From NCBI GenBank assembly GCA_009924895.1, contig RFQR01000007.1, forward strand, positions 1 through 63,710: a DNA stretch of 63,710 bases. Reading direction: 5' to 3'. Both the position numbers and the translations under genes were made by a program. Source of the stretch: a bacterium (lineage in GTDB: Bacteria > Patescibacteriota > Minisyncoccia > Phycocordibacterales > UBA2100). Position 1 is the stretch's first letter. Each line of letters starts with the position of its first letter. This document shows positions 1 to 36,082 of the stretch, one piece after another. The notes below the pieces were generated by a model. It had not been told where the DNA came from, ran no database searches, and saw only the letters and a list, made by a program, of their open reading frames with translations.

Positions 1-581
1 GTTATGCCTCTGGGCTCTTACTGTTTTTGCGTCCAGGAGTGATTTGCAGGCGAGGGCTGGGGCTCCACGAGCACGCGGGGATGTCCGAGCGTGGTCAGGC
101 GGAGAAAAGTTTCGACGGAAAATTTTCGAGCGTTTGACCGAGTCCCTCCTGGCGTACAAACGACAGAACAACCTGCACTGCTGCAGGTTGTTTTGCGTTT
201 GGGCGAGCCGGCACCTTGTGAGTACGCAAGTGCACTTGGATTTTTATAGACGGAGTACCGTCTTAAAAATCTCGGCGAAGCCATGTTTTGCTAGCGACCA
301 ATTTTTCTTGCCGGTACTCCGGCTAAGAAAAAGGAAGTACTCTTGTGGTGCAAGCAAAACGGGCGAGGCAGGTAAGGGCACACTTATGCAAAGCTTCGTG
401 AAATTTTATGAGCGACGGCGAGTAAAATATTCCTGACCACCCATAAATGCCTGATAAATTATGCGTGACGGAATCCCTCCTGGCGCAAAATATTTTTATT
501 TCCCTACTTATAAATCATATTTTTTGCTACCCCTATTTGCTGGGTGCGTGAGACTTTTAATGTTGTGTGTAAAAATATCAT

Positions 582-1205: not shown

Positions 1206-1601
1206 ATGCCTCAATTTATTCCACACGAGCTTCTGGCCCGTGTAGAATCGCTTCTCAGTGACCCATTTAAGTGGGTAACTGGTGTTTATGCCTGTGATAG
1301 TGGAGGCAATCCCTGTGAACCCACGAATATTACTGCTGCTAAGTTCAATCCTGTCGGTGCGCTTGTGCGCGTTACTCATGACCTTGGCATTCCCAATCCC
1401 GAAGAGCATATCATTCAATCTTCGGCATATTTTGAAAAGGTGACGGGGCTGACATTGGCAGGCTTTTGTGACACTGAGTCTCGTAAACAGTATTTGGCGG
1501 CGATGGATGTCTTCATAAAGCATTTAAAAACCTCAAAACGCCTTAAAAAGGAACCTCCGAATTACCCGCCGCGACGGGCAGTGTATCGTAAGGGCAAGTA
1601 A
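1206..1601 (+). CDS. Hypothetical protein, DUF6197-like
   Basis: W-x-x-G-x-Y-A-x-D-x-x-G...A-x-K-F-x-x-x-GAL pattern recalled from DUF6197-type proteins. Confidence 0.5.
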   Translation: MPQFIPHELLARVESLLSDPFKWVTGVYACDSGGNPCEPTNITAAKFNPVGALVRVTHDLGIPNPEEHIIQSSAYFEKVTGLTLAGFCDTESRKQYLAAMDVFIKHLKTSKRLKKEPPNYPPRRAVYRKGK

Positions 1602-1620
1602 ATGTGCTCGCTATGTAGCC

Positions 1621-1648
1621 TGGACCGCCTCTCAAGAAAGGCGGTCCA
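1621..1648 (+). terminator. Hairpin terminator tggaccgcct-N8-aggcggtcca
   Basis: Perfect 10-bp stem followed by tcttt. Confidence 0.6.
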
Positions 1649-1700
1649 TCTTTGTTACAAAATGCCGAGTTTGGACCGATTCATGATGTATAATTCAGCT

Positions 1701-22979: not shown

Positions 22980-23740
22980 CAAACAAAAAAATAACAACGT
23001 GGGGGCATGTAGCGCAGTGGTACGATGCGCATTTGCAAGAGGAAGATACCTATCATGCAAAGGTAATTTTGCCGAATCTTATGCGCCTTGTCGGGCGAGG
23101 GAATGGAAAGAAAGCACTTGATATCGCCTGTGGTCAGGGCTATTTTACGCGTGCGCTCGGTAAAAATGGGTTTGATGCTCATGGGGCGGACATAGCGCCC
23201 GAGCTTATCGAACAGGCACAAAAATACTCTAATGAGCATGGACAGTACACCGTTGCACCAGCAGAAAAACTTCCATTTTCGGCGCATCGTTTTGAAGTGG
23301 CTACCTGCGTTTTGGCGCTTCAAAATATTCGCGATCTTCCTGCGGCGGTGACAGAGGCTTATCGTGTGCTTGCCCCAGGCGGTCAATTCATAGCGGTCCT
23401 TAACCATCCTGCATTCCGTATCCCTAAACACAGCTCGTGGGGGTGGGACAATGAACATCGTACACAGTACCGTCGGCTTGATGCGTACATGTCAGAGTCA
23501 CACGCTGATATTGAAATGCACCCAGGAAAAGATAAGGAAGTCTCTACGGTGTCGTATCACCGACCACTCCAAGTGTATATAAAGACGCTCGTAAAGGCGG
23601 GCTTTGTCGTCACTGGTTTTGAAGAATGGATTTCGCATAAAGTAAGTGAAAAGGGACCGCGACAGGGAGCAGAGGACAAGGCGAGAAAAGAGTTTCCATT
23701 CTTTCTTTGTCTTGTTGCAACAAAAAGCTATAAAAAGTAA
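22976..23740 (+). CDS. Class I SAM-dependent methyltransferase
   Basis: LDIACGQG motif; ATGA overlap with the dnaX stop. Confidence 0.9.
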   Translation: MTNKKITTWGHVAQWYDAHLQEEDTYHAKVILPNLMRLVGRGNGKKALDIACGQGYFTRALGKNGFDAHGADIAPELIEQAQKYSNEHGQYTVAPAEKLPFSAHRFEVATCVLALQNIRDLPAAVTEAYRVLAPGGQFIAVLNHPAFRIPKHSSWGWDNEHRTQYRRLDAYMSESHADIEMHPGKDKEVSTVSYHRPLQVYIKTLVKAGFVVTGFEEWISHKVSEKGPRQGAEDKARKEFPFFLCLVATKSYKK

Positions 23741-23806
23741 TACGAGAACGGCGGGCTCCTTGTTTTTATGCCAATTATCGAGCATCATTGTCAGTGTTTG
23801 AAACGC

Positions 23807-23877
23807 TGCCGGATCGTCTAATGGTAGGACATCGCCCTTTGGAGGCGAGTATCTTGGTTCGAATCCAAGTCCGGCAA
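23807..23877 (+). tRNA. tRNA-Gln (TTG)
   Basis: Acceptor TGCCGGA/TCCGGCA, anticodon loop CTTTGGA. Confidence 0.95.
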
Positions 23878-24050
23878 CACGAGGAGTGTAACGACGAGAG
23901 TCACCGAAAGAAATGTGTTGAACACATTTCGTCTTGGATTCGAAGCCCGGAGCGATGTTGCGCGAGTACGCGCAACCGCGAGGGCAGGTCCGAGCAAATT
24001 TTTGCCTGACGAGGCAAAAATTATGCAGGGCTAATCCAAGTCCGGCAACA
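23862..24050. mobile_element. Small non-coding insert bounded by an exact 18-bp repeat of the tRNA-Gln 3' end
   Basis: aatccaagtccggcaaca at 23862-23879 and 24033-24050; three internal hairpins; inverted T-arm copy at 23933-23944. Confidence 0.7.
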
Positions 24051-24165
24051 AGCGAGAGAAGGCGAGCTGCAGCGACTGAACGCGAGTGAAGAAGTGCCAA
24101 AGCACAGCAGTGCGTGGTATGCCTTTGCCAGCAGGCGGCGGGTACAAGCGAGCGAAGGCGAGCTG
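24048..24165. repeat. Second module bounded by a 22-bp direct repeat (1 mismatch)
   Basis: acaagcgagagaaggcgagctg at 24048-24069 vs acaagcgagcgaaggcgagctg at 24144-24165. Confidence 0.7.
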
Positions 24166-24194
24166 TTTTTTTGTAAAGACGTATAATAATCAGA

Positions 24195-24701
24195 ATGAAA
24201 CAAAAAAATACCATCGCGCTTACGATCCTTCTTTTTGCGACTATTTTATGGCTCTACATGGAGTATGCGATTACGGGCGTTCCTATACCTGAGCCGGTTG
24301 CTGCACCTCAAAAACAGCATGTGGAACTGATCACAACAAGCGCGCCAGAGCGCACCCTACCTGCGGTTACGCAAAAGCCTGTGACTCAAAAAACAAAGCC
24401 CATACTCCCGAGTCAGAGCACATCAACTGCGACGACATCCACTCCAGCAAAGGCTATCGCGCCGCTCCCAACTACCTTTAACATGCAGACGCTTGCTCAA
24501 TATGATGGCTCAGACCCGAGTCTCCCGATTCTCATTGCCTTTGAAGGAAATGTGTATGACGTGACGCCCGGGAGATCTTTTTACGAACCAGGAGCCGGGT
24601 ATCATTTTCTTGCCGGGACTGATGACACAAAACTACTGCAAGTAATCGGAGGGGATATTATTAAAAGAAAATATAAAGTAGTGGGCGCGTTTACGCAGTG
24701 A
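24195..24701 (+). CDS. Cytochrome b5-like heme/steroid-binding protein (MAPR-like)
   Basis: LAQYDGSD..ILIAFEGNVYDVT..FY..GAGYHFLAG. Confidence 0.85.
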   Translation: MKQKNTIALTILLFATILWLYMEYAITGVPIPEPVAAPQKQHVELITTSAPERTLPAVTQKPVTQKTKPILPSQSTSTATTSTPAKAIAPLPTTFNMQTLAQYDGSDPSLPILIAFEGNVYDVTPGRSFYEPGAGYHFLAGTDDTKLLQVIGGDIIKRKYKVVGAFTQ

Positions 24702-35227: not shown

Positions 35228-35281
35228 ACGAACACTGTGGCGCAGAAAAGCTACGAAGTAATCATTTGTTATACTATTCGA

Positions 35282-36082
35282 ATGGCCCAATTCAGAAAAT
35301 CATATAATCCATATCGTTCGAGCGACTGGAACTACGGCGGCAACAAGTGGCGACTCTCGCGCTCAAAAATTGAACTCTTCACCGAGTGCCCGCGTTGTTT
35401 TTACCTCGATAATAAGCTGGGAACAGGGCGTCCTCGAGGCCCAGCGTTCACGCTCAACGTTGCGGTCGATGCGCTTCTCAAAAAAGAATTCGATTCGCAT
35501 CGCGTTGCAAAATCAGCGCACCCCTTGATGGAGCAATACGGTATTGATGCGGTCCCATACGAACATCCCAAAATGGATATTTGGCGCGAAAATTTTAAAG
35601 GAATTGAGTATGCTGAACCCGAAACGGGGTTTGTTGTCTCTGGCGCAGTCGATGATGTGTGGCAGAGCCCACAAGGCGAGCTCATTGTAGTCGACTACAA
35701 AGCAACCTCCAAAGACGGCACTATTGAGACGCTCTCAGATTCGTCGTGGGAAGATTCATATAAACGCCAGATGGGTGTGTATCAGTGGCTTTTGCGTAAG
35801 AATGGATTCACGGTTTCTGACACGGGATATTTTGTCTACGCCAATGCCTCATCCGACAAGTCTGCATTTGATGCGCAGCTTGAATTTGAAGTAACGCTTG
35901 TCCCGTGTACCGGTGAGACTGATTGGATAGACGAGACACTTCCGCAGATTAAGGCCTGCCTCGATAGCGATGCGTTGCCGGTCGTGGGCGAGCGGTGCGA
36001 GTATTGCCCGTATCGTGAGGCAGCAGGGAAGAAGCTCCAGGCGCTTGCAAAAGCGGCAAAACAGCCAAAACTCGAGTTGTAG
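35282..36082 (+). CDS. PD-(D/E)XK nuclease family protein
   Basis: LSRSKIELFTECPRCFY, GAVDD..IVVDYKAT..RQMGVY, CEYC. Confidence 0.88.
   Translation: MAQFRKSYNPYRSSDWNYGGNKWRLSRSKIELFTECPRCFYLDNKLGTGRPRGPAFTLNVAVDALLKKEFDSHRVAKSAHPLMEQYGIDAVPYEHPKMDIWRENFKGIEYAEPETGFVVSGAVDDVWQSPQGELIVVDYKATSKDGTIETLSDSSWEDSYKRQMGVYQWLLRKNGFTVSDTGYFVYANASSDKSAFDAQLEFEVTLVPCTGETDWIDETLPQIKACLDSDALPVVGERCEYCPYREAAGKKLQALAKAAKQPKLEL

Follow-up and report, generated by a model that had tools for sequence, protein, structure and literature searches.

A gene-less, folded element behind a tRNA-Gln gene is a diverged member of a family found behind tRNA genes in Patescibacteria

We analysed a 63,710-nt stretch of a patescibacterial genome (RFQR01000007.1, positions 1 to 63,710; hereafter the window), in which the 3' end of a tRNA-Gln gene is repeated a short distance downstream. 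The repeat and the DNA that it encloses are one diverged copy of a widespread family in the Patescibacteria (candidate phyla radiation, CPR), whose members are small, gene-less and folded and lie just behind tRNA genes. The family is apparently undescribed so far: a literature search found no description of it, and in Rfam 15 the tRNA itself was the sole match, with none on the element at E-values up to 10 in the window or up to 1 at eight loci. A sequence-only reading of the locus had described a miniature insert and had raised the question of whether its interior is unique. The interior is not unique, having at least 12 related copies, and the insert is no one-off but a diverged member of a conserved structured family. 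Patescibacteria represent much of bacterial diversity, and in their tiny genomes few mobile elements have been recognised.

Results

The tRNA-Gln locus combines two tRNA-matched arms with a folded core

Directly behind the tRNA-Gln gene, an exact 18-bp repeat that starts in the T-loop brackets 153 non-coding bp. Its sequence, AATCCAAGTCCGGCAACA, occurs exactly twice in the window (23862-79 and 24033-50) and no further even at 2 mismatches, the chance expectation being 0 matches (100 shuffles). The element begins 2 nt past the tRNA-Gln discriminator and lies on the same strand as the tRNA. Within it, CTTGGATTCGAA (23933-44) is the exact reverse complement of 12 nt of the T-arm, TTCGAATCCAAG (23858-69), and accounts with it for 2 occurrences in the whole window where 0 are expected. 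Both the bracketing repeat and the antisense T-arm segment had been picked out in the sequence-only reading and are confirmed here. The core of the 12-mer, TTCGAA, is palindromic and the T-arm is itself a hairpin, so that the focal 12-mer taken alone is also readable as sense CTTGG-TTCGAA with one A inserted. That it is antisense, and not a sense copy, is settled by its relatives, whose antisense arms extend into the acceptor strand (19-20 nt). The focal arm, exact over 12 nt, is shorter than those of canonical copies (17-20 nt), and is best matched to its own tRNA (13/21, compared to at most 12 for other tRNAs).

The antisense segment, the second repeat and the DNA between them, 124 nt in all, are predicted to fold as a single three-helix unit, with -59 kcal/mol and z = -6.5 on the + strand; the minus strand folds less well (-52 kcal/mol, z = -5.1). 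A closing helix (23933-40 / 24033-40), which comprises 8 bp and 3 outer pairs in the minimum-free-energy fold, encloses two arms at 23945-85 and 23987-24032. The three hairpins listed in the sequence-only reading (23910-30, 23957-76 and 23997-24022) are all present, but instead of standing by themselves they form the arms of a single conserved Y-shaped fold. The antisense segment can pair with the tRNA, but its pairing with the downstream sense copy, which closes the fold, is no weaker. A role of the third hairpin as a terminator was ruled out, its A-run/T-run orientation flipping between copies. The parts of the locus are as follows:

23807..23877, + strand: tRNA-Gln(UUG), intact, CCA not encoded (ARAGORN; Rfam RF00005, 64 bits)
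23862..23879, + strand: sense copy 1 (direct repeat 1, DR1), from the T-loop to 2 nt beyond the discriminator, within the functional tRNA (exact 18-mer)
23880..23932, + strand: spacer with hairpin hp1 (23910-23930), in place of the terminator-like spacer hairpin of canonical members (inverted repeat; family comparison)
23927..23944, + strand: antisense arm, of which 23933-40 pairs with 24033-40 as closing helix P1 (sequence, fold, model alignment)
23945..23985, + strand: P2 arm, with closing pairs GCCC/GGGC and GCG/CGC and the hairpin GUUGCGCG-AGUA-CGCGCAAC (23957-76) (fold, family comparison, model alignment)
23987..24032, + strand: P3 arm, GGUCC/GGGCU (G-U pairs included) and a long A/U-rich hairpin with a GACG loop (23994-24026) (fold; comparison with contig L033)
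24033..24050, + strand: sense copy 2 (DR2), an exact duplicate of the tRNA 3' end and also the 3' strand of P1 (exact repeat; fold)
24043..24165, + strand: second module, a 96-bp period bounded by a 27-nt imperfect direct repeat (24043-69 / 24139-65) (repeat analysis; conspecific strains)

The second module abuts the unit formed by the 153-bp interior and contains the joiner-like sequence GCGTGGT...CAGGCGG; it has no match to R1, the covariance model of the family described below. The word CGAG or GCGAG is strikingly common across element and second module, with ~11 copies in window 23880-24170 (for example AGCGAGAGAAGGCGAGCTG and CGCGAGTG); it is reminiscent of GAGCG, present three times in the canonical joiners, and might serve as a protein-binding site. 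A 238-aa open frame on the minus strand (23498-24214) spans the entire intergenic region with the tRNA and reaches into the 3' end of the methyltransferase gene; it was taken as a spurious chance frame.

A homologous element behind the tRNA-Gln of a relative

In a relative (contig L033), whose flanking methyltransferase is 68% identical, an element homologous to the focal one stands behind tRNA-Gln. The antisense arm there, GCCAGACTTGGAATCGAAC, is exactly complementary to 19 nt of the tRNA in front of it. Moreover, the T-loops of the two tRNAs differ once, AATCC in the window and ATTCC in L033, and in each genome tRNA, antisense arm and downstream sense copy agree at this position. The long P3 hairpin is kept through three compensatory pair changes between the conserved flanks GGCAGGyCCGAGC and ATGCrGGGC. 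The second module of L033 has the same joiners as the focal copy, which we therefore assign to a 'b' subtype. At the orthologous place, tRNA-Gln is absent from 20 GTDB relatives whose methyltransferase is ~50% identical, and from a 63% relative (L025-28), in which LysE follows the methyltransferase. L033 also has the motif GAGCGCTTGACTCGATTCC, and the same motif flanks an unplaced short contig in lake metagenomes that hold the focal organism.

A structured family behind tRNA genes

Scanning metagenome contigs of the Joint Genome Institute for the exact motif GAGCGCTTGACTCGATTCC gave 9 loci, 7 of which carry clearly homologous elements. Five of these seven stand behind an annotated tRNA, namely tRNA-Glu(CTC) in L063 and L067, tRNA-Glu(TTC) in L064 and L068, and tRNA-Arg(GCG) in L066; the other two, L069 and L070, are cut contigs with no tRNA call and only the 3' end of a Glu-type tRNA. 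The order of parts is the same in all seven: the tRNA is followed by a spacer with a small terminator-like hairpin and GGCGACAATAATTTTTG, an antisense arm ending in GGAATCGAAC, GGCGAG, a variable P2 hairpin with a G-rich bulge, GAGCGTGGTCAGGCGGAG, an A/T-rich P3 hairpin with a GACG loop, GAGCGCTTGACT, and finally CGATTCC with the 3' end of the host tRNA. The middle hairpin of the focal copy, GCGCGAGTACGCGC, has counterparts in L069 and L070 (CCGCGAGTACGCGG) and in L067 (TCGCGCAAGCTTGCGCGA).

RNAalifold predicts five helices, which are P1 formed by the arms, the P2 outer stem, the P2 inner hairpin, an 8-bp helix GTCAGGCG / CGCTTGAC, and P3. Across the 49 pairs and seven sequences, 91% of cells are paired, compared to 25-50% with the partner slid. 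Both sides have changed in 19 of the 49 pairs, and the covariation score of 0.343 exceeds those of shuffled (0.13; 0/500 reach it) and slid alignments (at most 0.11). The core helices contain 12 G-U and a single A-C, and 7 of the 12 fall on one invariant G-U position. In addition, a C/T change distinguishes the family copy at positions 30-156 of the window from the corresponding copy of another assembly and converts a C-G pair to U-G. Since G-U far exceeds A-C, and in view of this conversion, the fold forms on the strand that is sense to the tRNA, either in RNA or in single-stranded DNA.

The covariance model R1 scores its seven training members at 114-141 bits. It aligns to the focal copy over the full length (positions 1-128) with 28.4 bits, and with rough E-values of 2.9e-6 for 601 nt and 3.1e-4 for the whole window, both strands, filters off. 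R1 also detects a diverged copy behind tRNA-Gly in L005. The canonical joiners GGCGAG, GAGCGTGGTCAGGCGGAG and GAGCGCTTGACT are not found in the focal copy, which has GAGGGCAGGTCCGAGC and ATGCAGGGCT instead; thus there are two joiner subfamilies, each with its own joiners conserved across genera. Altogether, the architecture of ~130-200 nt is found at no fewer than 12 related loci and at six tRNA identities, with the element always oriented as its tRNA. The core ends in inverted T-loop-like 8-mers, and it is retained in copies that lack DR2 (L068 and L033a). Tandem modules occur in L033, L069 and the window, in which one of the four tRNA genes, that of tRNA-Gln, has a copy behind it.

The classic mark of tRNA-integrated islands is a direct repeat that extends from the T-loop to the end of the tRNA (Islander, PMC4383910), and no integrase is left at the focal locus. 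Both points would suit an inert scar, that is the decayed attL/attR of a tyrosine-integrase island or prophage whose body has been deleted and in which hairpins are incidental. Such a scar would neither contain an antisense arm nor be expected to recur with covarying helices at this many loci. Moreover, the focal repeat has no mismatch (18/18), and strains with differences elsewhere share the same interior, but for one base among conspecific contigs. We regard this explanation as very improbable and exclude it, because the architecture recurs and covaries.

A short contig of 377-500 bp, which matches window 24035-24067, is present at ~1-2 times host depth in four independent lake/freshwater metagenomes (X1-X4). 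It is a canonical element that ends in the tRNA-Gln 3' end and the same 17 nt as follow the focal DR2; it reads ...TTTTTCTGAGCGCTTGACTCGAT + TCCAAGTCCGGCAACAAGCGAGAGAAGGCGAGC + GCAGTGCCCCTTGCAGGCAAGCAAGGGGGT and shares AGCGAGAGAAGGCGAGC with the focal locus. Probably, it belongs behind a second tRNA-Gln gene of the same genome. Logan contigs of the focal and related species often break within tRNA genes or elements (L034 2202-2237; ends of L072/L074; end of L078), which is consistent with elements that are multicopy repeats exceeding the assembler word size.

Arms follow the tRNA and cores do not

In a match matrix, each antisense arm and each intact sense copy fits its own tRNA best; the exceptions are the antisense arm of L066, a decayed tRNA-Arg copy, and the sense copy of L068, which is lost. 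As the sequence-only reading would require, the antisense segment thus tracks the host tRNA for Gln, Glu, Gly and Tyr, and more weakly at the decayed tRNA-Arg copy. Similarity of P2, in contrast, does not follow the tRNA: the copy nearest to L063 (Glu) is L066 (Arg), at 78%, and the two Glu(TTC) copies reach only 60%. Since P2 relations ignore tRNA identity, related cores sit behind different tRNAs with re-written arms. The asymmetric internal loop of the spacer is also conserved between elements at different tRNAs, which indicates that the spacer is inherited and not regenerated at each event. In L067, the displaced sense copy (TGAGGTC) pairs better with the 5' strand of the tRNA than the resident end (TGGGGTC) does. 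This suggests that the 3' end of the tRNA was replaced by an element from another host, and a better-pairing displaced copy is what would be expected if the element had brought the replacement end. This L067 locus (1401-1695, minus strand) consists of tRNA-Glu(CTC) and, behind it, a composite element without an antisense arm.

Arms that track the target over five tRNA identities, related cores at different tRNAs, and a structured scaffold that adjoins target-matched segments are also what a guide-carrying mobile element would have, as the sequence-only reading had proposed. Its antisense arm, as RNA, would pair with the tRNA gene or the pre-tRNA and direct a nuclease or recombinase in trans, following the logic of a bridge RNA, an omega-RNA or the exon-binding site of a group II intron. 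The bridge/seek RNAs of IS110/IS1111 and the omega-RNAs of TnpB/IscB are likewise ~130-200-nt structured non-coding scaffolds flanked by target-matched segments. However, in those systems the scaffold adjoins a DEDD or serine recombinase or a nuclease gene, and neither is adjacent here; no DEDD, TnpB, IscB or reverse-transcriptase gene turned up in Pfam data on the open reading frames (ORFs) of window and flanks. Bipartite guide loops are missing from the fold. In contrast to the guides of bridge RNAs, both target-matched segments correspond to one and the same stretch and pair mutually. Furthermore, such systems do not make direct repeats of 18-63 nt, and there is no Rfam match to HEARO, omega-like or intron families. 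Nothing that we found shows RNA guidance: a transcript, a nuclease or recombinase partner, and a circular junction or an empty site of this unit were all not found. We consider this explanation improbable.

A tRNA-Tyr locus and strain differences of one repeat period

The window contains one further member of the family, for which the context lies outside it:

30..156, + strand: second, canonical family copy, which is element E2 of a tRNA-Tyr locus situated immediately beyond the left edge (R1, 93.8 bits; context)

This copy has no tRNA directly upstream. After it, window 157-400 contains further hairpin modules that resemble the focal P2 and P3 arms, with a terminator-like hairpin at 167-196, CTTGTGAGTACGCAAG near 215-230 and GATTTTTATAGACGG-AGTA-CCGTCTTAAAAATC near 238-271. 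To the left of the window, on the 631-kb scaffold L071, a canonical copy (R1, 92 bits) lies directly behind tRNA-Tyr, and its antisense arm tracks the unusual T-loop of that tRNA, TGCAAAT. The whole locus (L071 13036-16425, equal to L075 8763-12152) consists of tRNA-Tyr, element E1, a 2.4-kb segment and element E2. It includes two 192-nt direct repeats of spacer plus element, which are 97% identical and 3,129 bp apart, and the 2.4-kb segment is bracketed by 296-nt inverted repeats (96%). The tRNA-Tyr end and its terminator spacer, 63 nt in all, are perfectly repeated after E1. In strain L077, whose ClpB is identical, exactly one 3,129-bp period is missing, and an insertion at the element or a deletion between elements would both fit this difference. 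None of the three ORFs of the 2.4-kb segment has a Pfam hit, and we do not claim the segment as mobile cargo: homologues of the 421-aa protein encoded by the largest of them are found in unrelated or syntenic chromosomal contexts without an element. At the focal locus, contigs with an identical methyltransferase fall into two alleles, which differ by exactly the 96-bp period of the second module.

That both polymorphisms equal one repeat period would also be explained by an enzyme-free structured repeat. Such a repeat would spread and have its arms homogenised by template switching, gene conversion or unequal crossing-over, behaving behind tRNAs much like REP (repetitive extragenic palindromic) sequences and BIMEs (bacterial interspersed mosaic elements), and it would exploit the T-loop microhomology that is nearly universal (GGAATCGA ... 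TCGATTCC), along with the palindrome of the terminator spacer. The inverted T-loop-like 8-mers at the core ends are in line with this, as is the long quasi-palindrome that tRNA end, spacer and antisense arm form around the spacer hairpin; moreover, the 63-nt duplication at tRNA-Tyr includes the trailer and is too long for a transposase-type target duplication. However, the conserved internal loop points to an inherited spacer, and the strong covariation together with the invariant joiners implies selection on the fold. REP/BIME, Correia-type and MITE-like (miniature inverted-repeat transposable element) repeats are often co-transcribed with neighbouring genes. They share with the family that they are small, gene-less, hairpin-forming and multicopy. 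In contrast to them, the family has arms that vary with the tRNA instead of constant terminal repeats, has duplications of 18-63 nt, and is strictly confined to tRNA 3' ends in tRNA orientation. To us, an enzyme-free origin seems about as improbable as a guide.

Searches for a recombinase, a virus and a transcript

Neither phmmer searches seeded with gamma-delta resolvase and XerD, nor Pfam on 30 ORFs, nor precomputed Pfam data revealed a tyrosine or serine recombinase in the window, and no recombinase was found in the fetched flanks of ~10 kb. Pfam data on the ORFs of window and flanks also contain no transposase domains. The sequence-only description of a gene-less, tRNA-associated stretch with attL/attR-like geometry and no integrase thus agrees with the absence of a recombinase nearby. 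A protein of the PD-(D/E)XK nuclease superfamily is encoded at 35237-36082 of the window (Pfam E = 1e-15), ~1.1 kb upstream of tRNA-Glu(CTC); there is no element behind that tRNA, and no link to the family was seen. A phage or attP origin was rejected: the 18-mer is found in 4 IMG/VR contigs, 3 of which are the same virus, inside a coding region without a tRNA and at about chance level, and four other motifs gave nothing or chance-level matches in viral contigs.

RNA runs matched tRNAs of other organisms only, and metatranscriptomes from the study of one of the DNA samples contain no contig on the locus. This lack of transcript evidence counts against the main rival to the explanation that we favour below, namely a structured RNA acting on its own tRNA. 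The element would share the transcript of the tRNA or have a separate start immediately ahead of the antisense arm, and this arm would pair with the 3' half of the pre-tRNA or with the decoy sense copy; the closed form would mimic an acceptor/T-stem minihelix recognisable by RNase P, RNase Z or the CCA-adding enzyme, and the three-way junction would bind a protein or ligand. In its favour, the joiners are invariant, also among elements at different tRNAs, and a G-U pair is conserved. It fits further with the fold on the tRNA-sense strand and its variable G-U pairs, with the constant orientation, with cores kept where DR2 is lost, and with two subfamilies whose own joiners persist across genera. 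However, the tRNA-Tyr copies have a strong terminator-like hairpin with a T-run between tRNA and element. Moreover, three of the four tRNA genes in the window have no copy, the copy at 30-156 belonging to the tRNA-Tyr locus outside, and the tandem or truncated modules, this tRNA-less copy and the strain polymorphism resemble selfish spread. On balance, we judge an RNA device unlikely.

Discussion

Of the explanations considered, we favour, if tentatively, a non-autonomous cassette that sits in the T-loop-to-3'-end part of tRNA genes, with the folded arms and core serving as the recombination site for an enzyme provided in trans. The 171-bp unit (23880-24050) together with the last 18 nt of the tRNA would be a diverged gene-less cassette. 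It would have supplied its own copy of the tRNA 3' end, which would now complete the gene, the earlier 3' end having been displaced downstream as DR2. The antisense arm would pair with the sense copy of the tRNA end to give a duplex image of the target that closes the three-helix Y-shaped core. This core folds on the tRNA-sense strand, and arm and core would be used as single-stranded DNA, like the hairpin of an integron attC site or of the CTX-phage attP. A recombinase encoded elsewhere would act on the folded site, and repeated events would lead to tandem modules and to strain differences of one period. We infer that the fold is the recombination site and that it acts as single-stranded DNA, and the same holds for the identity of the enzyme and the crossover point. 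A circle or tandem junction of the unit would read ...ATGCAGGGCT-AATCCAAGTCCGGCAACA-CGAGGAGTG, and an empty site would read GGTTCGAATCCAAGTCCGGCAACA joined directly to AGCGAGAGAAGG.

Several points weigh against the cassette. The re-writing of arms for a new tRNA has no explanation in this model, and a recombinase partner was not found in the window or the fetched flanks. Neither a circular junction nor an empty site of the 171-bp unit was seen in the assembled contigs that were searched, all four strain contigs carrying the unit. Structure but not sequence is conserved in attC sites, and the invariant joiners and invariant G-U of the family look more like a functional or protein-bound RNA than like known folded DNA sites; the invariance of the joiners is in part an ascertainment effect, because the scan that yielded the seven members used an exact 19-nt joiner motif. 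Both strain polymorphisms (96 bp and 3,129 bp) can be accounted for by simple homologous deletion between direct repeats. Finally, a distant homologue of the 421-aa 'cargo' protein lies on another contig in the same rpsP-KH-trmD neighbourhood without an element, which favours deletion at tRNA-Tyr; in view of this homologue and of the ORFs without Pfam hits, a deletion is at least as likely there.

The cassette shares features with several known systems. Tyrosine integrases are reported, by Williams in 2002, to have a T-loop sublocation in tRNA genes. The tRNA and transfer-messenger RNA (tmRNA) islands and prophages of this type (tyrosine integrase, T-loop sublocation; PMC4383910) resemble the family in that they target the 3' part of a tRNA gene, restore the gene, leave the displaced fragment from the T-loop to the 3' end at the far end, and accrete in tandem. 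The direct repeat of the focal copy from the T-loop through the 3' end is of this kind, but there is no integrase inside its 153 non-coding bp. The family also differs from such islands in having no cargo, a size of ~0.15-0.2 kb rather than kilobases, an antisense copy of the target, and a folded core that covaries on one strand. CIMEs (cis-mobilisable elements) and cargo-only tycheposon satellites (10.1101/2020.12.28.424599) are kilobase-sized remnants or satellites of known autonomous parents. Like the family, they are bounded by attL/attR, lack an integrase of their own and occupy tRNA-proximal hot spots with arrays of partial tRNA repeats, whereas the unit of the family is a conserved structured module for which no parent element was found.

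Integron attC cassettes, CTX and other elements with an attP that exploits Xer are gene-poor or gene-less units that are mobilised in trans, use a strand-specific hairpin site formed from inverted arms, and build tandem arrays at a fixed site. The family resembles them in a strand-specific folded site that is kept by compensatory change, which is a likeness in working and not in membership. In contrast to attC, the family was found in no IntI, Xer or attI context, its arms copy tRNA ends and not GTTRRRY or dif-like boxes, and its joiners are highly conserved. Compared to the attC boxes (RYYYAAC ... GTTRRRY), the T-loop of the family, GTTCGAT / ATCGAAC, fits 6/7 positions at best, and the window contains no integrase. 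For the family, a single-strand intermediate like that of attC is a proposal.

It is possible, though doubtful, that the elements represent a new class of target-matched nucleic-acid devices, in which a conserved three-helix core, as RNA or single-stranded DNA, lies between antisense and sense copies of a tRNA 3' end and has its arms re-written for each tRNA. Such a device might program its own site-specific insertion without an element-encoded protein, or act as a strand-exchange switch for maturation or repair of that tRNA. The ~130-nt defined fold with invariant joiners is biochemically testable, and target-matched arms around a constant scaffold are a natural case of the design principle of programmable recombination tools. 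In the genomes of Patescibacteria, the family accounts for many 'partial tRNA duplicates' and assembly breaks. If the elements are cassettes, they would be a novel means by which DNA cassettes home to essential genes and leave them unharmed; if they are RNA devices, they would add a new layer of tRNA-linked RNA biology.

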